35,697 nucleotides of DNA from an uncultured archaeon (GCA_964342815.1 CAYFHS010000043.1:1-35697); one strand, 5' to 3'; positions 147 through 34,180 are shown, counted from the stretch's first letter. The notes: generated from the letters alone by a model not told the origin. Numbers and translations: made by a program.

Positions 147-3100
147 CTATTCGAACTCGGAGCCGCAGTGAGTACATTTGTCGGCATTCTTCTTGATTAT
201 CCCGTCGCAGTTCGAACACTGCATCTCTCCCTTTTCAAGGAAGACCGAACCACACTCATCACATTTGTTATCCTCAGCCAATACATTTGCACCGCACTCT
301 GAACAGGTTGCGGCCTCCAGTTTGGAAAGCAGATCATCCAATTCGCTCTCGTCCAAGCCCTCTTCCAGGTCCAGTTCTTTTTCGAATTTCCTTTCGCATT
401 CCGGACAGCTCTCAATATCCATGTCCACAGAAGCACCGCAGTTGGAACAGGTGATCTCGGGGACCGTGAAAACGTTGAACTGTTCAAGCAGATCATCGTA
501 AAGTTCCTCGTCGAGAATGCTTATATCCTTGGGAAAATCCCCGAAATCCAGATCGAACAATTCCGGACTGCTGTCCAGATAATCCAGTTCAAATACTTCG
601 GTTGGTTCCATACCGTCCCAACCCGTACCAGAGGGAAATTCCACGGTTCCCAGATCTTCGAGATCGTAATACTTCGCTTCGGCGGCCTCTTTCTTTTCCT
701 TCCTCTTCCTGTAGAAATAACCATACACGAGAAGGATTATCAGAACTATGAGTGTTACAATTATTATTACCATGACAATATAGTTTGGTTCGCCCTCAAC
801 TGCTGCAATAGGATTATCTTCAAAATCAGGGGGTGTACCGTCCTGATATTCTTTTATGTTTGCGCGCCCGTCGTTATCCGGATCGCCATTGGCTCCGTTT
901 TCGCCGGTTGCATTGAGTGGGTCCAGATTATAATCCCATTCCCAACCGTCCGGCAGCCCGTCCCCGTCAGAATCCCAGTGATTAGGATAAGTACCTGCTT
1001 TGTACTCCTGAAGGTTTAATAGGCCATCCCCGTCAAGGTCTTCATCCGCATCGGTCCCGTCGAAGGAACCGAGACCGTAGAAAGTTTCCCAGCTATTGGG
1101 CATATCGTCCTCATCGTCGTCCGCCCTATAGGTCGAATCATATGGTTCCGGATCACTATTGTCACCAACCCCGTCCCCGTCACTGTCCGTGGATTCGTCC
1201 TTATCCAATGGGAACCGATCGAGTGGAATGGGGGTTCGGTCTCCGTCCCAGTCAAGATCGGGAGCAAAGGCTGCAAGTGTTATGGTTATGTCACCCGGAT
1301 TGTTGACGGAATACTTGATGGAGGTTTTGGATAGCATCGCAGTGTTCAATTTCTCCCACGCACCATTTTCCAATTTGTAAAATGAGAGATTATCGATATC
1401 CCAGAGTTCGGGCTGTAGCAGTTTTCCTTTGAGTTTTTCAAGATTGAGACTTAAGGTTATCGCAACCCAATTCACTTTACTGTTAAGAGTTACGTTGAAA
1501 TAAACACCGGTCGAGACAAAATAATCGGGAACTGGGGCTGGCGAACTATCCACCGAAGCCCAAAGATCGTATCTCGATAGGCTTTCACCCCATTTTTCAT
1601 ATGTAATATTGATGCTCTGCGATTTGATAACGTAATTATGTTCATTGTACTTATGCGTCGTATCCTGAGTGATAAAACTGTAACTGCTCCTGTCATTACG
1701 GTTGTAAAACTCGTGGGTAGCGAAATTCCGGGCATTGTCGATCATGTCCACCTTTATTCTATAACTGGATTCATATTTCAGGGTCACGTCATCAGGTAGA
1801 ATGAAGCTTGCAGAAAGGGTCCATACTACGTAATCAGATTGACCCGATACCATTTCCCAGGTATTCGTTACTTCATCGAAGACCAGCAGTCTGACGGTAA
1901 CTTGGCTCAACGGCTCATTGAAGTGTACAATTATGGGAGTTGTCACCGGTAATTCCAAGGCTCCCTGAGTAGGTATGCTGCCCGTTACATAAGGTGCTGC
2001 CTTATCAAGCACTATGATCTCTGGAGTTGTGGAAATGGATAACCTGCCAAAATAATCCACGGAATAGGCAGTAAGAATATTTTCACCCGGTTCCAGAAGT
2101 ATTGGGATCGAGAAATTACCGTCCTCGTCGGGTATGATATCCTCGTAAACGGTCTTGTAGTTCACTATGAGTTTGATGCTACAGTCAACTGGTGCTTTTC
2201 CTTCTATGTTGATATTCTCGTAACTGGTCCAGTTCGTTAGGATATTGAGAACAGGAGGTGGTGGAGCTGTGTTATTCAAAACAATGGTGATCTCATCCTG
2301 TGTATGATTGTTCCCAATGTTGTCAACAGCACCGAACATGAGATTATGCACGCCCTCATTGAGTATTAGGAGTTCGTCATCCCAGGTGACATTGCCTCCA
2401 TCCAGTCGGTACCATACGTCTTTCACACCTGATTGTGGGTTATTCCCACTAATATCCTCGGCTGCAAGCGAGATCACCGTGCTGTCCTTAATATATACGT
2501 CATCGGTCCCTGATAACGTGTGGTTTTCGCCCTTGTAGTGGGGAGTGACTTTGGGAGGCGTGATATCTATATAGAAAGCTCCAGTCTGTCTTGCGCCGGT
2601 GATTATGGAATTTCCCTTGTTACTTAAATTGTCCTCGGCTCCGATCTTCAAATTATGATATCCCTCGGCCAATCCTTCCATGGATATCTTTGAACTGTCA
2701 TTGTATTGACGTTCAATGCCGTCCAATTCGTAATATATCATTTTCAACCCGGAGGCGGCATCCTGAGCATCCAGAGTAAAAATTGTATCATTTCTCACAA
2801 AGAAATCATTATTTTCGACTCCGTCAACGTAGTATATGTCAATTGACTCGGTTACCGCCGGGAATGTATTATCAAGATATATCCACAACTCTTCACCACT
2901 GGTGTTATAACCCAGGTTGTCGACGGCACCCAAGGTTAGATTATATTTTCCGTCAGGGACCTCCCAGTCAAAAAAGAAGGTATCGGGTGAAACAGAATGC
3001 GAAAAATTGAATTCGATCCAGTAATGATCGATACCCGAGACGTCGGTGAAATTCATGGTAAAAGGTGTATTTCGCGAAACGTTCCAGGTGTGGTTGTCAT

Positions 3101-5102
3101 CCATCCTGTAGGCTCCATCCAACGTCAATTCCTGAAAATCAGGAGTCGAAAAATCCACAGTTATGTTCATTCTTAAAATAGTTTCAGTATTGCCTTCGAA
3201 ATCAACGGAATAATAATACAGTGAATAATTGCCCGAACCGTTCTTTGCAGCGGGTGAGAAAGGATTGTTGAAAGTTGTCCATCCGGTACCGGTATTATTC
3301 CACTGCAGGTCATAATAGGTATATTGAACACCGCATCCCTCGCTGTCCTCAAAAGTGATATTGATTTTTGTTGTATCGTTTATGAAAAGCATATCCGGCA
3401 GAAGGTATTCATTCCCGATTGTTTCAATTGAAGAACTTGGGGCAATTGTATCGTTCATTTTGAATTCCAGTGAATAGTTATTCGGTTCTTCGATGGATAG
3501 ATTTTCCGCGAAATATCCCCACTTTTCAATGCTAACGTTCATGGGATAGTTATAAGTTGTCTTTTGTATACCGGAAGCGTTCATTTCGACGAATGTTATG
3601 TTCTGCCACCAGATGCCGTTCACCTCACCCGTTTGGAACTCTTTTAGATAAGTGGTCTCATTCTTGTCCTTTATTACGATGGTCATACAGCATACTTCCA
3701 CTCCTGTAAGATTATATACATTGACGGACAGGAAATATTCGGCCCAGAGGTAACTGCGGTTCAGTCCGGTGTGATTCATCACATAAGTCGAATTCAGAAG
3801 AAATACCAGGGAATCGGTGGCGTTTATGTATTCGGAGCCGTATTCCGAAAAGGAGCTGTTCGTGATCCGCATTTCGGTGGTTCCGGAGGGACTGCCGACA
3901 ATGGCAATGCCGCCGCTGGTATTGGAAAAGGTAGATTCGCAAATTTCAGTAACACTAAAATTATTCATGGAATTGTTGATGGAAATGGGAAGATTCCCCG
4001 GGCTTGAGACAGTAGAATTCATAATGGAGATATTCGTAATGTTCACCAACTGAAATACGAGACCCGCAGCATTTATTACCGAAATATCCTGAAAATCGAA
4101 TTTTTCCATGTCCTCGATTCTGTAATAAATGTCGGAGCCGCCGGAGCATATTACCTCGTTGGTTCCGTTGATGGTCAGGGAGTCCAGCCCGCTTGCATTC
4201 ATCCCCACTGCGCAGGAAATAATATTGATGTCTTTCAATGTGAAATTCTCCGTTTGAAACAATTTTAGCCCATCGCCGGTACTGTTTGATATGATTATAT
4301 GCGACAGGTGTGCCACGACAGACCCGGAGATATTGATCCCAGTGGAACAATTATTCATGGATGCGTTGGACAAATTAAATGTGCCTTTCCCCTTCCCTTC
4401 GCTCACAAAGGCTAAACCCGAAATATTCTCAATTGTCGTCTGGTTCATGGATATATCGACCTGGCTTCCCGATACAGCGTCCAATTTGACACCGTTCCCA
4501 CAGCTTTTTATGGTAAGGTCTTCAGTCGATATGGTTGAGTTCGCATCCACCGTGATAGCGGATTCCAGCGTGTGGTTTATAGAAACATTGAACAATTCGG
4601 CCCGACTATTTGTAAAAACTAATGCGTTCTTTGAGTTGTAGATTACTGTATGGTTTAAATAACTGGTGTTGTCGTTGGACTGAAATACGATCCCGGTAAA
4701 GCCACCCGGAGCATGTGTGGAATTGGCACATATGGTCACAGGTTTTCCTTCGGACCCGTTCAATACCAAGCTCCCGTTCACAGTGAGTGAAAGATCGTCG
4801 TCGAACTTCAGATACGTACTGCTGTTTACGGTAAGTGAGGCGCCCGTTGAAACCGTTACATTTCCATGAAATATGAAAACACCCGAATTATTAGTTACAC
4901 TACCGTTTGAATTCGCTGCAAGGTCCTCCATATACCAGTGCGAACCCGATGGTATCACAAATCCGGTACCCTGACCACGGGCTTCTTTTGTAGTAAAAAA
5001 CATAATGCCTGAAAAACCCGTCAATATTAGGAGCGTACAAACGAATACGGCAAGATACTTAGGACCTACACTGCAAGGTCGTTCCATGCCAGTGGTACTC
5101 AT
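147..5102 (-). CDS. Giant cell-surface protein: N-terminal signal/TM, parallel beta-helix repeats, tandem Ig/beta-sandwich repeats, Ca-binding DxDGDG (TSP3-like) repeats, C-terminal TM, acidic cytoplasmic tail with three Zn ribbons
   Basis: 1651-aa ORF with a GGGGTGA SD upstream of ATG 5102. N/S/I-rich beta-helix repeats; repeated D/NxTxP domain starts; DSDGDG/DLDGDG motifs; hydrophobic YIVMVIIIVTLIVLIILLVYGYFY followed by RKRKEKK; three CxxC..CxxC pairs at the C-terminus. Confidence 0.85.
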   Translation of the reverse strand: MSTTGMERPCSVGPKYLAVFVCTLLILTGFSGIMFFTTKEARGQGTGFVIPSGSHWYMEDLAANSNGSVTNNSGVFIFHGNVTVSTGASLTVNSSTYLKFDDDLSLTVNGSLVLNGSEGKPVTICANSTHAPGGFTGIVFQSNDNTSYLNHTVIYNSKNALVFTNSRAELFNVSINHTLESAITVDANSTISTEDLTIKSCGNGVKLDAVSGSQVDISMNQTTIENISGLAFVSEGKGKGTFNLSNASMNNCSTGINISGSVVAHLSHIIISNSTGDGLKLFQTENFTLKDINIISCAVGMNASGLDSLTINGTNEVICSGGSDIYYRIEDMEKFDFQDISVINAAGLVFQLVNITNISIMNSTVSSPGNLPISINNSMNNFSVTEICESTFSNTSGGIAIVGSPSGTTEMRITNSSFSEYGSEYINATDSLVFLLNSTYVMNHTGLNRSYLWAEYFLSVNVYNLTGVEVCCMTIVIKDKNETTYLKEFQTGEVNGIWWQNITFVEMNASGIQKTTYNYPMNVSIEKWGYFAENLSIEEPNNYSLEFKMNDTIAPSSSIETIGNEYLLPDMLFINDTTKINITFEDSEGCGVQYTYYDLQWNNTGTGWTTFNNPFSPAAKNGSGNYSLYYYSVDFEGNTETILRMNITVDFSTPDFQELTLDGAYRMDDNHTWNVSRNTPFTMNFTDVSGIDHYWIEFNFSHSVSPDTFFFDWEVPDGKYNLTLGAVDNLGYNTSGEELWIYLDNTFPAVTESIDIYYVDGVENNDFFVRNDTIFTLDAQDAASGLKMIYYELDGIERQYNDSSKISMEGLAEGYHNLKIGAEDNLSNKGNSIITGARQTGAFYIDITPPKVTPHYKGENHTLSGTDDVYIKDSTVISLAAEDISGNNPQSGVKDVWYRLDGGNVTWDDELLILNEGVHNLMFGAVDNIGNNHTQDEITIVLNNTAPPPPVLNILTNWTSYENINIEGKAPVDCSIKLIVNYKTVYEDIIPDEDGNFSIPILLEPGENILTAYSVDYFGRLSISTTPEIIVLDKAAPYVTGSIPTQGALELPVTTPIIVHFNEPLSQVTVRLLVFDEVTNTWEMVSGQSDYVVWTLSASFILPDDVTLKYESSYRIKVDMIDNARNFATHEFYNRNDRSSYSFITQDTTHKYNEHNYVIKSQSINITYEKWGESLSRYDLWASVDSSPAPVPDYFVSTGVYFNVTLNSKVNWVAITLSLNLEKLKGKLLQPELWDIDNLSFYKLENGAWEKLNTAMLSKTSIKYSVNNPGDITITLAAFAPDLDWDGDRTPIPLDRFPLDKDESTDSDGDGVGDNSDPEPYDSTYRADDDEDDMPNSWETFYGLGSFDGTDADEDLDGDGLLNLQEYKAGTYPNHWDSDGDGLPDGWEWDYNLDPLNATGENGANGDPDNDGRANIKEYQDGTPPDFEDNPIAAVEGEPNYIVMVIIIVTLIVLIILLVYGYFYRKRKEKKEAAEAKYYDLEDLGTVEFPSGTGWDGMEPTEVFELDYLDSSPELFDLDFGDFPKDISILDEELYDDLLEQFNVFTVPEITCSNCGASVDMDIESCPECERKFEKELDLEEGLDESELDDLLSKLEAATCSECGANVLAEDNKCDECGSVFLEKGEMQCSNCDGIIKKNADKCTHCGSEFE

Positions 5103-26236: not shown

Positions 26237-29200
26237 CTAACTACCCGGTTTACAGCAACCGATTGATTCGATTATGGGAATCGTATGCTCTTTGTGGAAC
26301 CGTGTAATTCGATCCAGTTCATCCAATATTTTGGTTTTCTCTTCGCCTGTTATACGATAGGTCAGATCCACGATCTCCCCGCCCTCAAGACCCTCCGAGG
26401 ACATGAAAGTTCCGCCAAGTACCGTCAAATAGACCGGCATTGAATCCTTTCGATTTGCAGCTGCCCATATCCTGCACCAAGCCTGGGAAGTGGATTTTAC
26501 GTTATAACCACCGCCTCCAAGCAGGAGAAGTTGCTTGCTGTAATCCCTTATACGCTTTACCGCCTCCACCATCCCGTTATTTGTGAGATTGAGATCTGTC
26601 AAAGGATCGTTCTTGTGCGTATCTGCACCCACGACCGCCACTACGACATTAGGCTGGAACTGATTTACCGCTTGTGTAACGATTCCGTCGAATACCATTT
26701 CGAAAGACTCGTCATCGGTACCCGGTGGAAGAGGAATATTAATATTGTAACCCTGGCCTTTATTTTCTCCGATCTCATCTTCGAAACCGGACCAGGGGTA
26801 CAATGACTTCCCCGTCTGGTGCAGTGAAACGGTCAATACGCGGTCATCTTTGTAGTATGCACTCTGAACACCGTTCCCATGATGCGCGTCAATATCGATA
26901 TATGCTACCCTTAATCCATGAGCAAGGAAGGCGTCTATAGCCATTATTACGTCGTTAACATAGCAAAATCCTTCCGCCCAATTGCGGCTGGCATGATGAA
27001 AACCTCCAAGAGGATTGAATACAACGTTGGCGTTCTCATTAATAATAAGATCTACGCCGGTCAGTGTGGCCGATGTATAAAGAAGAATGTAATCGAAAAG
27101 ATTTTTGAAAACAGGTGTATCTTCACCACCCAGGTTGAATTTTATCAATGACTCGTCCCATACGCCCGAGTTTGCCCTTTCGAGAGCTCCTATGAAAGTT
27201 GGGTCGTGTGATTCGATCAACCGCTCCCTTCCTATAATTCGTGGTTCCTCCATACGCATCCAGGGTTCCTTGAGGAATCCTTCTTTATTGATAAGACGAA
27301 GTGTAGATCCTGCCCGGTCAGGTCGGAACGGATGTCCTTCACCGTAAGAATAATCATTAAATCGTCCTGAATAGACTATGATACTGTCCTTGGGCCTTTC
27401 GATATCCTCTTCTGGGAAACGGAGCATGAAAATACATATGCCTGAATCAAAGTGTTTCTCGGCGGTGGGCCAAGCCTTGGTAAGCAGTGCCATGGTTGGT
27501 GCGTTGTCAACTATAACCTCTGCATAAACTCCAGCTAGACCCCGGGAATATGCAATCTTCTTCAAATAATTGGCAAGAAAAGTCCCGATCCCTCTTCCCT
27601 GAACCTCCTCCGTGACAACTATGTCGAACTCACCCATTTTATTAGCTGGATTGTACATGTACCGACCTTCTGCAATTACCCTGGGATTGCTGGGGGGTCC
27701 AACCAGTCCGATGATGGCGACATCCTGGCTGTAATCGATATAGGTAATACTCTGCAAATTTTCGGCAGTGAGTGTTTTCACCGCTCCGTGATACCTCATC
27801 CTTATGGTCTCCTCCGATAGGGAATAGAACATACGCTGTATTCTGCGGGCGTCTGAGGGTTTTACAGGTCGGAAATAAACATTGAGCTCCGTGGAGTCAA
27901 CTTTTGTAGAAATAGGTTCATCAAGAGAATACGGGTGGCCTTCTATGGTAGGGAATAAGTTTGAGGGTGACTTTGGTGAATATCTGCCATAAAATGTATG
28001 ATGGAAAGAGTACTGATGGGGATAAATGCATCCCGGATCAATGGGTAGAAAGAGATCATTGGATATGTACTGGAAACGTTTTGCCTCTTCGAAAAGCTGT
28101 CTACGAAACTTGGGATGAGCTATAGAGATAAGCGCAATCGCTCTCTCGCGGATGGAGAGCCCTCGTAAATATACCGAACCATATTCGGTAACAACGATGT
28201 CCACTTTTGCCCTGTTGTAATATACTCCCTGACCGGAACTCTCCGGAACGATCCTGGATTGCAGACCGTCTATGGAGGTGGAGTACAGAGCCATGATCAC
28301 CAGACCGTTCTTAGAGCGGCGGGTACCATCGATGAAGTCGGTGCTGCTGGGAAGGCTGCGTGTGTTCGAAACGCTCGTGGTGTCCAATCTAGCGAGGCCG
28401 CTCAATTCCATTTCTTGAACAGTGAGGACCGACACCATGTTGTCATTTCGGGAAATAACAAAAGGATTGTTCACGTACTCGATGGGGTACAACCTAATAT
28501 TGGGATTCTCATTTACTGCCTCGTAGAGCTCCTTTGAGCCCATGGCCAGGGTGGCAACCGTAGTCCCCTTGTTAATATTTTTCTTCCTGTTGGTAACCGC
28601 CCCTGATTTGATCAGACGTAATAGGTCATCCGTAATTATGTCGGTATGGATTCCGAGGTCATTTTTACTATCCAGATATCTTGTTGTGGCCGAACTGATG
28701 GAGGTACGGTCAAAATGCAAAGTCATACCCCCGTTGATGAGTTTCGCTATATGTCGGCCTATAGTTAATGAAATCGGGTCCAGTCCTGGAGATGGAACCT
28801 CTATCAGAGGAGCATTTCCTTTGACAAAGTAGTTGATGCTCTCCGCGGAAATGTGGGTATCCCCTAGAGTGACCGGCATGTTCTCGTTCACCTGGGCTAT
28901 CACCAGGTCTGCGTTCTCCACCGCGGCCTTTGCTATATCTACAGATACTCCCAGGCTGCATTTATCTGATGAATCCGGTTCGGAGATCTGGATGAGTGCG
29001 ACATCAAGACAAATAATACCGGCAGCTATGGCATCAGGAAGCTCGCTCAGGTTTATGGGTGTATAATCTGCGATACCCTCCGTGACGGCCGATTCCAATC
29101 CTCGACCAATATAGAATGTATTGTATCGAAAACTGTTTACGAACTCAGGACGAGCCAATCTCGATTCTCCCTGGGCCATCATGTGAATGAGGCGGATGTC

Positions 29201-29362
29201 TGCAAACCGATATGCCAATTCTTCAAGGTTTTTTGTAAGTAAAAGGGGTTCAGCACATCCTGATCCGATGAATATGGTCTGCCCGTTCCGAATGTGGGAA
29301 AGAGCTTCCTCAGGTTTCACAACCTTGTCAGCTAACCGCTCCTGCCACCGTTTTTCGATCAT
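26237..29362 (-). CDS. Triple fusion: acetyl-CoA hydrolase/CoA-transferase-like domain (degenerate) + Pat-type GNAT acetyltransferase + Zn-dependent deacetylase (AcuC/HDAC family)
   Basis: aa 1-433 CoA-transferase fold (GSGCAEP, LGVSVD, VVTEYG..LRGLSIRERAIALISIAHPKFR); aa ~495-650 GNAT (FRPVKPSD, QGRGIG); aa ~661-1000 HDAC (HPFRPDR, GGFHHA, GFCYVND, DIDAHHG, GADTH..DPL, GGGGY). AAGGAG SD. Confidence 0.92.
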   Translation of the reverse strand: MIEKRWQERLADKVVKPEEALSHIRNGQTIFIGSGCAEPLLLTKNLEELAYRFADIRLIHMMAQGESRLARPEFVNSFRYNTFYIGRGLESAVTEGIADYTPINLSELPDAIAAGIICLDVALIQISEPDSSDKCSLGVSVDIAKAAVENADLVIAQVNENMPVTLGDTHISAESINYFVKGNAPLIEVPSPGLDPISLTIGRHIAKLINGGMTLHFDRTSISSATTRYLDSKNDLGIHTDIITDDLLRLIKSGAVTNRKKNINKGTTVATLAMGSKELYEAVNENPNIRLYPIEYVNNPFVISRNDNMVSVLTVQEMELSGLARLDTTSVSNTRSLPSSTDFIDGTRRSKNGLVIMALYSTSIDGLQSRIVPESSGQGVYYNRAKVDIVVTEYGSVYLRGLSIRERAIALISIAHPKFRRQLFEEAKRFQYISNDLFLPIDPGCIYPHQYSFHHTFYGRYSPKSPSNLFPTIEGHPYSLDEPISTKVDSTELNVYFRPVKPSDARRIQRMFYSLSEETIRMRYHGAVKTLTAENLQSITYIDYSQDVAIIGLVGPPSNPRVIAEGRYMYNPANKMGEFDIVVTEEVQGRGIGTFLANYLKKIAYSRGLAGVYAEVIVDNAPTMALLTKAWPTAEKHFDSGICIFMLRFPEEDIERPKDSIIVYSGRFNDYSYGEGHPFRPDRAGSTLRLINKEGFLKEPWMRMEEPRIIGRERLIESHDPTFIGALERANSGVWDESLIKFNLGGEDTPVFKNLFDYILLYTSATLTGVDLIINENANVVFNPLGGFHHASRNWAEGFCYVNDVIMAIDAFLAHGLRVAYIDIDAHHGNGVQSAYYKDDRVLTVSLHQTGKSLYPWSGFEDEIGENKGQGYNINIPLPPGTDDESFEMVFDGIVTQAVNQFQPNVVVAVVGADTHKNDPLTDLNLTNNGMVEAVKRIRDYSKQLLLLGGGGYNVKSTSQAWCRIWAAANRKDSMPVYLTVLGGTFMSSEGLEGGEIVDLTYRITGEEKTKILDELDRITRFHKEHTIPIIESIGCCKPGS

Positions 29363-32725: not shown

Positions 32726-34180
32726 TTATTTCAGTGATTCACCGCAGAACGGGCACATTGCAAAATCGGGTTCCACCGCTTTACCACAATTCCAGCAAGC
32801 GTTGCCGGGTGGTGGGGGCGTGTTCGCATCGACGTGCATCTTGGTCGATACACCTCCGCCTTGTACCAGGGTCTGGGGTCCCTGCTGCTTTGAGGCTTCC
32901 ATCAGGTGGGCCGCTTCCTTGTTCATGTTAATCTGGTGTTCGCGTTCCCTGTCCTCTGCAGCCTTGTAGGTATCGAGATTGTGCCTCTGGGCTTCGGCGG
33001 CTGACAGGTCCTTTACCTTGGAGCCTTCCCGGTCTAGAGCCTTCTGCATGGTCATCTGCCTCATCATCTCCTGGATCGATCCCGAATCCGCCGCTCCCGA
33101 TGCAACGGCCTGCTGCATGATTGCCTGCATAGCCTCGGTCTGCATACCCATCTGCGCATTCTGATGGTCCATGGCCTGCTGCTGCCTTGCCATCTTCATT
33201 GCATTTAGCTGCTGTTTTGCACCCATTGCTTGAGACAGTTCACGGGCGTCCTGCTCGGCTTCCAGCTCCGCCACGGACTTTTTCCTTCGAAATTGTTCAT
33301 CGAAGATGTCCTTGCTTTTGTCCATCTTGTGCTCGTGCTTCATCTTGTCGCGCTCAATGGCTGAATCCATATGAGTAGTCTTAAGTGATTCCTTGCCGGA
33401 TACTTCACCACGCCGCAGATCCCACTTGTCCTGGCGGAGTTTCTCCACCTTGTCGTGTTTCCTCTGCTGTTTGGCTGTCCAAGCGTCGTGGTCGATCTCG
33501 TGCTTCGAGGTTTTAAGATCGGCTTTCGTCCGGTGTTCCTCCACCGCATCGTGCATTGTCTTCTTCCAGTTGGTGAACATCTTTACAACGGACATTCCCC
33601 ACATGGCGAAGGTCTTCCGCATCTCGATCATGGCCGCGGTTTCCATGTCCTTTATTATATCGACGTTACCGTGGAACTCCTCTTTGCTGTACTTTGCAAT
33701 CCGGTTCTTGAAGACCATGGATACGATCTCGTCGTAGATCTTCTGCTGAAGCGCCTTTTTCGTCAATAAGCTCTTTGCTCTCATGAGAGTAAGAACCTGT
33801 GTGGCATTCTCCGAGGACAATGTAAATCGGAGGGTGCATTTGCCCTTTATAGGCATATGATCCTTAGTCGATGCTATCACAGGAAAGATCAACTCGATAG
33901 GTGCTATATCCATGAATAGGATCTTGTACTTCTTCCTGTCAAGTATGCCGAATAATTTTTTGATACGTGTCTGTGTTATAACATCCTCGACCTTGCCATC
34001 GGTAACGATCACCGCGCATTCGTTGGGTTCGATGGTCATATCCTTCAGCATGTCTTTCTTGAAAATGAACTTACGTTCTTTCTCCTCGCCTTTGGCAATT
34101 ATTCTGGCAACAATTTGATCGGGGGGTATCGGTGCACCTTTGATCACTTTCCAGTGCCATTTCTTGTATGCTTCTGACAT
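32726..34180 (-). CDS. Soluble SPFH/band-7 (YdjI / Band_7_1-like) protein with long coiled coil and C-terminal Zn ribbon
   Basis: IEPNECAVIVTDGKV and the SPFH-like core ending GMSVVKMF; charged and then Q/M/A-rich helical region; PPPP linker; CWNC..CPFC; GGAGG SD. Confidence 0.8.
   Translation of the reverse strand: MSEAYKKWHWKVIKGAPIPPDQIVARIIAKGEEKERKFIFKKDMLKDMTIEPNECAVIVTDGKVEDVITQTRIKKLFGILDRKKYKILFMDIAPIELIFPVIASTKDHMPIKGKCTLRFTLSSENATQVLTLMRAKSLLTKKALQQKIYDEIVSMVFKNRIAKYSKEEFHGNVDIIKDMETAAMIEMRKTFAMWGMSVVKMFTNWKKTMHDAVEEHRTKADLKTSKHEIDHDAWTAKQQRKHDKVEKLRQDKWDLRRGEVSGKESLKTTHMDSAIERDKMKHEHKMDKSKDIFDEQFRRKKSVAELEAEQDARELSQAMGAKQQLNAMKMARQQQAMDHQNAQMGMQTEAMQAIMQQAVASGAADSGSIQEMMRQMTMQKALDREGSKVKDLSAAEAQRHNLDTYKAAEDREREHQINMNKEAAHLMEASKQQGPQTLVQGGGVSTKMHVDANTPPPPGNACWNCGKAVEPDFAMCPFCGESLK

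Follow-up and report, generated by a model that had tools for sequence, protein, structure and literature searches.

The stretch of DNA analyzed here, 35,697 nucleotides from an uncultured archaeon (GCA_964342815.1, CAYFHS010000043.1:1-35697; the whole stretch is referred to below as the window), carries on its minus strand a gene for a protein of 1041 amino acids (aa) in which a CoA-transferase-like domain, a GNAT acetyltransferase domain and an HDAC-type deacetylase domain follow one another on a single chain. On balance, the sequence comparisons and the analogy with known systems make it somewhat probable that this gene encodes a bifunctional protein-lysine acetyltransferase/deacetylase placed behind a pseudoenzyme domain derived from a CoA-transferase, with targets of the acetyl-CoA synthetase (Acs) type and a regulatory function for the N-terminal domain. 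The three-domain architecture itself is real, and the N-terminal domain is a pseudoenzyme that has retained its fold and is under strong purifying selection. The gene and its domains are laid out in the window as follows:

26237..29362, minus strand: whole gene, 1041 aa, with an ATG start, the stop codon included in the span and no internal stop
28064..29362, minus strand: CoA-transferase-like pseudoenzyme domain, residues 1-433, class I, 4-hydroxybutyrate CoA-transferase/RipA type
27893..28063, minus strand: linker, residues 434-490, poorly conserved, with a predicted local distance difference test score (pLDDT) <50 at 461-489
27398..27892, minus strand: putative Pat-type GNAT protein-lysine acetyltransferase domain, residues 491-655, with homology to PatZ/Pat/SlPatA
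26240..27397, minus strand: class-I-type Zn deacetylase (HDAC/AcuC/HDLP) with a helical C-terminal tail, residues 656-1041, the domain core ending at about residue 970

The first-pass annotation, made from the sequence alone, had described three domains in one open reading frame (ORF) of 1041 aa. This was confirmed by the intact ORF, whose start agrees with the family consensus M....WQ..YA.K, and by four Pfam models matching in order: AcetylCoA_hydro (PF02550; residues 9-183, E value 1.5e-23), AcetylCoA_hyd_C (PF13336; residues 275-427, E value 7.8e-44), Acetyltransf_1 (residues 563-628, E value 8e-8) and Hist_deacetyl (PF00850; residues 677-968, E value 2.6e-79, with the model covered in full). 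An AF2 model of the whole chain gave a pLDDT of 87.5 and a predicted template modelling score (pTM) of 0.88, and the JGI annotation names the C-terminal domain “AcuC-like”. All the motifs that had been quoted for the protein (GIHTDI, LHFDRT, PSSTDF, QGRGIG, GGFHHA, DIDAHH and GGGGY) were found at the residues assigned to them.

Searches of the N-terminal domain against solved structures with phmmer returned 4-hydroxybutyrate CoA-transferases and RipA with E values of 1e-94 to 1e-62 (1.5e-94 for 3eh7), and Foldseek comparison of residues 1-433 with 3gk7, 3eh7, 2oas and RipA gave template modelling (TM) scores of 0.89-0.94, so that the two-lobed acetyl-CoA hydrolase/transferase fold is kept; pLDDT values in this domain were mostly >90. 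The first 431 residues scored 189 bits with the NCBIfam model for butyryl-CoA:acetate CoA-transferase, far short of its cut-off of 675. The former active site is altered at three places:

28640..28642, minus strand: Asp241 (codon GAC) within GIHTDI (residues 237-242), replacing the catalytic Glu (Glu238 of 3gk7, Glu249 of RipA)
28703..28720, minus strand: LHFDRT (residues 215-220), replacing LQ(L/M)G(I/V)G, with D218-R219-T220 at the RipA gating loop G226-V227-G228
28334..28351, minus strand: PSSTDF (residues 338-343), replacing GGQ(V/A/L)D(F/Y), with P338-S339-S340 at GGQ

The exchange of the catalytic Glu for Asp241, together with the drift of the two neighboring motifs, had been proposed in the first-pass annotation and is borne out by alignment with the solved 4-hydroxybutyrate CoA-transferases, in which GIHTD lies under GIHTE, ungapped around the active site. 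The offsets put D241 on residue 238 of 3gk7 and on Glu249 of RipA, and D241 matches the Asp of the engineered RipA variant E249D (4n8l). From the ungapped offset we take Glu238 to be the catalytic residue of AbfT (3gk7), as Macieira et al. 2009 are reported to have described. The Gly226-Val227-Gly228 loop of RipA gates the acyl-CoA cleft beside the nucleophile (PMC3180442). In AarC, Val270 (the equivalent of the RipA loop) positions the thioester and the CoA thiolate, and the external oxyanion hole, an element described as strictly conserved across class I enzymes, is provided by the backbone amide of Gly388 (PMC4876117); judging from motif position, we take GGQ to be the motif that carries this glycine. 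The catalytic features of class I CoA-transferases, that is the Glu nucleophile (Glu294 in AarC), the G-V/I-G gating loop and GGQ, are all absent from the window protein, and the loop 328-334 just ahead of the P-S-S motif has a pLDDT <50. A working CoA-transferase was rejected on the loss of three, probably four, catalytic elements and on the occurrence of non-acidic residues at position 241 in some fused members.

The extent of this remodelling was assessed across relatives with and without the deacetylase domain. A word-indexed search gave 280 relatives of the window protein, and the figures given here for the fused family are from the best 120 of the 280 or from 113 full-length sequences. 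The best 120 share 54-88% identity, are nearly all about 1000 aa long and contain the same four Pfam domains. Unfused CoA-transferase-GNAT proteins form a very large family (at least 8000 candidates, all significant, the best 120 all about 620 aa) annotated merely as “GNAT family N-acetyltransferase”; they had been mentioned in the first-pass annotation for anaerobic bacteria, where they do occur, and archaea have them as well. In the unfused proteins (n = 120), G218, G220, G336, G338 and R345 are each found in 120, G339 in 119, E241 in 117 and Q340 in 113. In the fused family (n = 120), other residues have become fixed where the active site used to be, with H216 in 115 (96%), D218 in 111 (93%), D241 in 108 (90%; Glu in seven and Leu, Ala, Gly or Ile in five) and P338 in 104. 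The unfused domain has 115 positions with ≥95% invariance; the fused family retains 69 of them and has lost 30, the losses clustering at 218-223, 241, 313-339, 345 and 382-388. An invariant Asn (313) and Gln (323) of the unfused domain are also lost, H239 and T240 are still invariant, and six basic residues (K261, K267, R370, R384, R405 and R407) are invariant in both families. Five fused proteins (L004, L008, L011, L012 and L034) have Glu at position 241 yet already carry H-F-D and P-S-S, and in the two fused branches that lie deepest the residue is Met (L026) and Leu (L016), which indicates that this position is no longer under nucleophile constraint.

The altered domain is nevertheless maintained. 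Comparison with an 88%-identical orthologue with conserved flanks in a genome of the same genus (L029/G077) gave ratios of nonsynonymous to synonymous substitution rates (dN/dS) of 0.068 for the CoA-transferase-like domain, 0.028 for the GNAT domain, 0.043 for the HDAC domain and 0.156 for the linker, at a dS of about 1.1, near saturation. Mean pairwise identity among 113 fused proteins was 0.60, 0.62, 0.68 and 0.42, respectively. Decay of the altered domain was rejected on its dN/dS of 0.068 and mean identity of 0.60.

The two other domains, judged by alignment, keep every catalytic residue that was checked, at the following motifs:

27614..27634, minus strand: GEFDIVV, strand with the presumed catalytic Glu (E578), GNAT domain
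27584..27601, minus strand: QGRGIG (residues 588-593), acetyl-CoA loop, GNAT domain
26990..27007, minus strand: GGFHHA (residues 786-791), deacetylase domain
26879..26896, minus strand: DIDAHH (residues 823-828), deacetylase domain
26600..26629, minus strand: GADTHKNDPL, deacetylase domain
26504..26518, minus strand: GGGGY (residues 949-953), deacetylase domain

The best solved relatives of the GNAT domain were PatZ (9it0, E value 1.8e-11, and 9isq), MsPat (4orf), MtPat (4ava) and SlPatA (4nxy), all of them protein-lysine acetyltransferases acting on Acs. The NCBIfam model for mycobacterial Pat matched residues 483-653 with an E value of 5.6e-17, a score under the equivalog cut-off of the model. 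Alignment with PatZ places E578, within GEFDIVV, on the Glu of its strand AEFAVLV, and E578 presumably corresponds to the catalytic Glu of SePat/MtPat; position 578 is Glu in 100 and Asp in 13 of the 113 fused members, and hence acidic in all. In the acetyl-CoA loop, which fits the pattern Q/R-x-x-G-x-G/A, G591 is kept in 112/113 and position 593 is Gly or Ala in 113/113. The deacetylase domain aligns end to end with HDAC2/1/3/8 and with Aquifex HDLP (E values of 8.5e-66 for HDAC2 and 4.5e-55 for HDLP), with Foldseek TM scores of 0.82-0.87 against HDAC2/3/8, and it is of the class-I type (HDAC1/2/3/8, HDLP), not the acetylpolyamine amidohydrolase (APAH) type. The His dyad H789/H790, the Zn ligands D825/H827/D914 and the Tyr Y953 are each present in 112-113 of 113 fused members, and the retention of GNAT motifs and deacetylase catalytic motifs noted in the first-pass annotation thus extends across the family. 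One assignment has to be revised: the third Zn ligand had been placed at the Asp of D-P-L (D919), whereas homology to HDAC8 D178/H180/D267, with the alignment to HDAC2, gives what is presumably the true ligand as D914 of G-A-D, both residues being invariant in the fused family.

The fused architecture was found in >110 protein clusters sharing 54-88% identity, from Thermoplasmatota and many bacterial phyla, and the source names of the relatives include metagenome-assembled genomes (MAGs) of Thermoplasmatota, Deltaproteobacteria/Myxococcota, Aminicenantes and Planctomycetes. The identical window protein was found on five contigs. A scan of loci in one genome per species, seeded on HDAC motifs, gave 27 full-length fused genes, plus split pairs and stand-alone HDACs. 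A search of representatives with the GNAT region did not yield a count of fused clusters, since the entire fused family falls in one 50%-identity cluster; the nearest GNATs outside it were the unfused forms of about 620 aa, short single-domain GNATs and Pat-like proteins of 820-970 aa. One Myxococcales MAG has the fused gene in four pieces, ORFs of 229, 443, 154 and 132 aa (L027, 2124-5161), which reflects either a pseudogene or assembly frameshifts. A chimeric assembly or a read-through of separate genes is of practically negligible probability for the window gene, and was rejected, as the same ORF recurs in >110 independent clusters from many projects and in four other Thermoplasmatota genomes, the domain trees are congruent and the neighboring genes are archaeal housekeeping genes; the breadth of the family and the congruent trees thus answer the concern over a chimera raised in the first-pass annotation.

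A single fusion event joined an intact CoA-transferase-GNAT protein to an AcuC-type deacetylase that had been encoded separately, the two genes having formed a pair. In a tree of the CoA-transferase-GNAT part, a single branch splits fused from unfused sequences (Shimodaira-Hasegawa-like approximate likelihood ratio test support 100), and the HDAC tree unites the fused domains in a single clade (support 99) with the same internal topology and one stand-alone HDAC nested within; both are quick-search trees. The single branch and the congruent HDAC tree indicate that the three domains have travelled together since one fusion and that the degenerate motifs are a trait of the fused clade. The split loci, found by the locus scan in Chloroflexota, Planctomycetota and unclassified bacteria, have a CoA-transferase-GNAT gene of about 620 aa directly before or after a separate HDAC gene of 380-510 aa, often with overlapping stop and start. 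The stand-alone HDAC nested in the fused clade (370 aa; L055, 3850-4962, from the same assembly as L021) may reflect a secondary fission, a duplicate or a contig-level artefact. At eight Chloroflexota/Anaerolineae loci (L036, L038-L041, L044, L045 and L056) the HDAC gene overlaps the end of the CoA-transferase-GNAT gene, and these HDAC partners have an extra N-terminal region of about 105-140 aa, unlike the other HDAC partners.

Among 301 sampled Thermoplasmatota genomes, the fused form (frames of 1019-1059 aa, ≥64% identity) was found in five genomes of two families, one being of the same genus. Lower-identity matches (about 31-46%) occurred in 50 other Thermoplasmatota genomes of many families, and as a second match in one genome with the fused form; they were mostly unfused-type frames of about 620-730 aa, with some fragments and one plain transferase of about 430 aa. 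All 17 archaeal unfused proteins examined retain the canonical motifs. Fused sequences from archaea are nested among those from bacteria at two or more points in both trees, and within the fused clade it is bacterial sequences that branch deepest; the window sequence groups with L029, L001, L002 and L003, beside Planctomycetota. Given this patchy distribution in Thermoplasmatota and the nesting among bacterial sequences, the fused gene of the window was most likely acquired from bacteria by a lineage that ancestrally had the unfused form, in line with the horizontal acquisition that the first-pass annotation had thought possible. Two unfused Thermoplasmatota ORFs, L099 5666-8611 on the minus strand and L096 5918-8113 on the plus strand (genomes G207 and G258), have long N-terminal extensions before the transferase domain, of about 350 aa in L099 and about 110 aa in L096, partly perhaps through over-extension to an early start codon.

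A link with AMP-forming synthetases had also been suggested in the first-pass annotation, and this holds for relatives of the gene, with acs a recurrent neighbor, but not for the window, in which no acs was found. The acs genes near family members are 55-62% identical to the AcsA of the window's source genome. In L008, L012 and L013 the gene directly upstream of the fused one is acs, which also adjoins the split forms in L038, L039, L044, L047, L056 and L057, occurs near some stand-alone HDACs, and lies within about 6 kb of five of 17 archaeal unfused genes, with the genes overlapping in L097. After allowing for kinship, this adjacency represents roughly eight independent lineages, far above what is expected by chance from one or two acs genes per genome. 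In the Myxococcota MAGs L008 (6003-13045) and L012 (5991-13754), acs is followed by the fused gene on the same strand and then by a convergent unfused paralogue with intact catalytic motifs. The source genome (G000) encodes an AcsA with the lysine motif PKTRSGK, further AMP-forming ligases, one other HDAC (28% identity), two sirtuins and a single copy of the fused gene. Its best AcsA is split over two contig ends, C10:1-1179 on the minus strand and C13:2-769 on the plus strand (613 and 407 bits to TIGR02188); given the overlap of about 28 residues between the two pieces, the contigs probably join there.

In the mechanism proposed, the Pat-type GNAT would act as the writer, acetylating AMP-forming acetyl-/acyl-CoA synthetases on the Lys of PKTRSGK, and the class-I-type Zn deacetylase on the same chain would act as the eraser, removing the acetyl group. 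The CoA-transferase-like domain would take the role of the inactive NDP-forming acyl-CoA-synthetase-like domain of Pat/PatZ, binding CoA/acyl-CoA and/or driving oligomerization and so setting the balance of writing and erasing. Some reciprocal control is to be expected, because a free GNAT and a free deacetylase on one lysine would futilely hydrolyze acetyl-CoA, and the most evident candidate for the input of this control is the former active site, which has been remodelled and is under constraint. As a mechanism of this kind, a sensor or toggle is plausible; true reciprocal, ligand-driven toggling is a more tentative proposal, to which we would give rather less than an even chance. Equally tentative is the fullest form of the idea, according to which the protein would be the first natural single-chain writer-eraser of lysine acetylation and a sixth type of prokaryotic acetyltransferase, whose pseudoenzyme domain might read CoA/acyl-CoA (or acetate) through a site formed by H216, D218, R219 and D241 and reciprocally gate both activities on the same lysines of Acs and related ligases.

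Several observations weigh against the proposal of an acetylation switch acting on Acs. The fused gene stands alone in the window, its neighbors encoding a transglutaminase-like protein, an ABC-2 permease and a HAD hydrolase, and the window lacks acs, as stated. No conserved operon around the fused gene was found among 81 neighbors at 23 loci by Pfam, no family being dominant and Acs accounting for 3 of the 81. An HDAC is nearby in only one of 17 archaeal unfused loci, and the seeding of the locus scan on HDAC motifs means that HDAC adjacency is over-represented in it. All members of the fused family come from MAGs, and the dN/dS values carry the near-saturation of dS given with them.

Within the window, the fused gene has a 200-nucleotide AT-rich spacer upstream, and none of the adjoining genes is related to it in function. 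The genes around it code for archaeal housekeeping proteins (PolD small subunit, proteasome alpha, archaemetzincin, triosephosphate isomerase and adenylosuccinate synthetase), which marks the contig as bona fide archaeal. Two proteins encoded in the window have zinc-ribbon tails: a 1651-aa ORF (147-5102, minus strand) whose sole Pfam matches are C-terminal zinc ribbons at about 1552-1621, the remainder being unannotated, and a 484-aa ORF (32726-34180, minus strand) whose sole match is a C-terminal zinc-ribbon/DUF7575.

The alternative that survives best, although it is unlikely, is that the CoA-transferase-like domain is merely a structural or oligomerization scaffold holding the GNAT and HDAC domains together, with no ligand sensing and with any regulation coming from elsewhere. 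The loss of 30 once-invariant positions around the active site and the predicted disorder of loop 328-334 agree with this, as do the tight dimer formed by RipA (PMC3180442), the dimers or tetramers formed by transferases of the class, the essential oligomerization of PatZ/SePat (PMC8556138) and the pTM of 0.88, which suggests a fixed arrangement of the domains. An abandoned site would not, however, be expected to have H216, D218 and D241 newly fixed exactly where the old one lay, a pattern that points to a site in use, and the six shared basic residues fit a retained polyanion (CoA nucleotide) site.

It is improbable that the GNAT and deacetylase act on a small molecule, such as a polyamine, an amino sugar or an antibiotic-like amine, or on different substrates, so that there would be no protein-lysine switch. 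The HDAC family does include acetylpolyamine amidohydrolases, many GNATs acetylate small molecules (PMC8556138) and the neighborhood of the fused gene is variable; against this, the nearest solved relatives of the GNAT domain (PatZ, MsPat/MtPat and SlPatA) are all Acs-modifying protein acetyltransferases, the HDAC domain is of the class-I and not the APAH type, and acs recurs as a neighbor in several independent lineages.

Slightly less probable still is an altered catalysis, in which the N-terminal domain would be, for example, an Asp-based acyl-CoA hydrolase or a slow transferase supplying or removing the acyl donor beside the GNAT. Mack and Buckel are said to have turned glutaconate CoA-transferase into an acyl-CoA hydrolase in 1997 by a Glu-to-Asp exchange, the unfused relatives look like working transferases, and H239 and T240 are still invariant. 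Such a role is difficult to reconcile with the Leu, Met, Ala, Gly or Ile that some fused proteins, those of the two deepest branches among them, have at position 241, with the loss of the invariant Asn 313 and Gln 323, and with the replacement of both the G-V-G loop and the GGQ motif, the oxyanion element being strictly conserved in class I (PMC4876117).

In prokaryotes, the reversible acetylation of Acs on lysine serves as the model for how protein modification controls metabolism. To our knowledge, writer and eraser are separate proteins in every studied system, and how the futile cycle is avoided is poorly understood. If the acetylation-switch proposal holds, the family would make the coordination of writer and eraser directly testable in one purified protein, would add a regulatory-domain type and a pseudoenzyme origin missing from the published GNAT classifications, and, in the fullest form of the idea, would represent for acetylation a set-point controller like AceK or GlnE. 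The intact unfused proteins and the degenerate fused clade would offer a natural series for the passage from enzyme domain to regulatory domain. Members of the family are frequent among uncultured anaerobes (Myxococcota, Planctomycetota, Chloroflexota, Thermoplasmatota and others), in which acetate and acyl-CoA metabolism plays a central part. The first-pass annotation knew of no characterization of the triple form, and no published description of the fused architecture or of a CoA-transferase-type regulatory domain was found here in the full-text literature, which does not cover most subscription journals. Specifically, no fused acetyltransferase-deacetylase or CoA-transferase-type regulatory domain appears in the deacylase survey PMC11532494, the reviews PMC8556138 and PMC11254643 or the PatZ structure paper.

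Among the known systems, the type I acetyltransferase Pat/PatZ (YfiQ) of Salmonella enterica and E. coli, which works with CobB on Acs, is similar in having a GNAT of the same subfamily placed after a large, no longer catalytic domain that descends from a CoA-thioester enzyme, and in its genomic link to acs. The large domain of Pat/PatZ is an inactive homologue of such an enzyme; its binding of acetyl-CoA is cooperative, and the GNAT both needs it and has its activity shaped by it (PMC8556138; bioRxiv 10.1101/2024.11.12.623305). The window protein differs in that its putative regulatory domain has the class I CoA-transferase fold rather than that of an NDP-forming acyl-CoA synthetase, and in that its eraser is covalently fused and of the Zn HDAC type, whereas CobB is a sirtuin. 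The published GNAT types are I-V, with NDP-forming acyl-CoA synthetase-like, cNMP-binding, ACT and NADP-binding partner domains (PMC8556138, PMC11254643), and the arrangement in the window, with a CoA-transferase-like partner domain, is not among them. The AcuA/AcuB/AcuC system of Bacillus subtilis likewise pairs a GNAT as writer with a Zn deacetylase of the class-I type as eraser, and the system is linked genetically to acsA, which it controls. In Bacillus, however, these are three separate proteins with the sensor AcuB acting in trans (PMC13121692; PMC8556138), whereas the window protein is one chain with a putative sensor; its GNAT scores as Pat-type.

The unfused CoA-transferase-GNAT proteins of about 620 aa are direct relatives, with 39-46% identity over both domains in the same order and often an AcuC-type gene and/or acs beside them, but their catalytic Glu, G-x-G loop and GGQ are intact and they have no fused deacetylase. 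No published characterization of these unfused proteins was found either. AbfT (3gk7) and Yersinia pestis RipA (3qli) share the fold of the window domain (TM score about 0.9, 30-36% identity) and possess the nucleophile Glu, the gating loop and the oxyanion-hole motif, all three of which are replaced in the window protein. In design logic, the closest parallels are the converter enzymes AceK (kinase/phosphatase), GlnE (adenylyltransferase/removase) and GlnD, in which opposing activities are carried on one polypeptide and set by metabolite effectors; these have no sequence or fold relation to the window protein and use other chemistry, and the reciprocal control that governs them is, for the window protein, only proposed.

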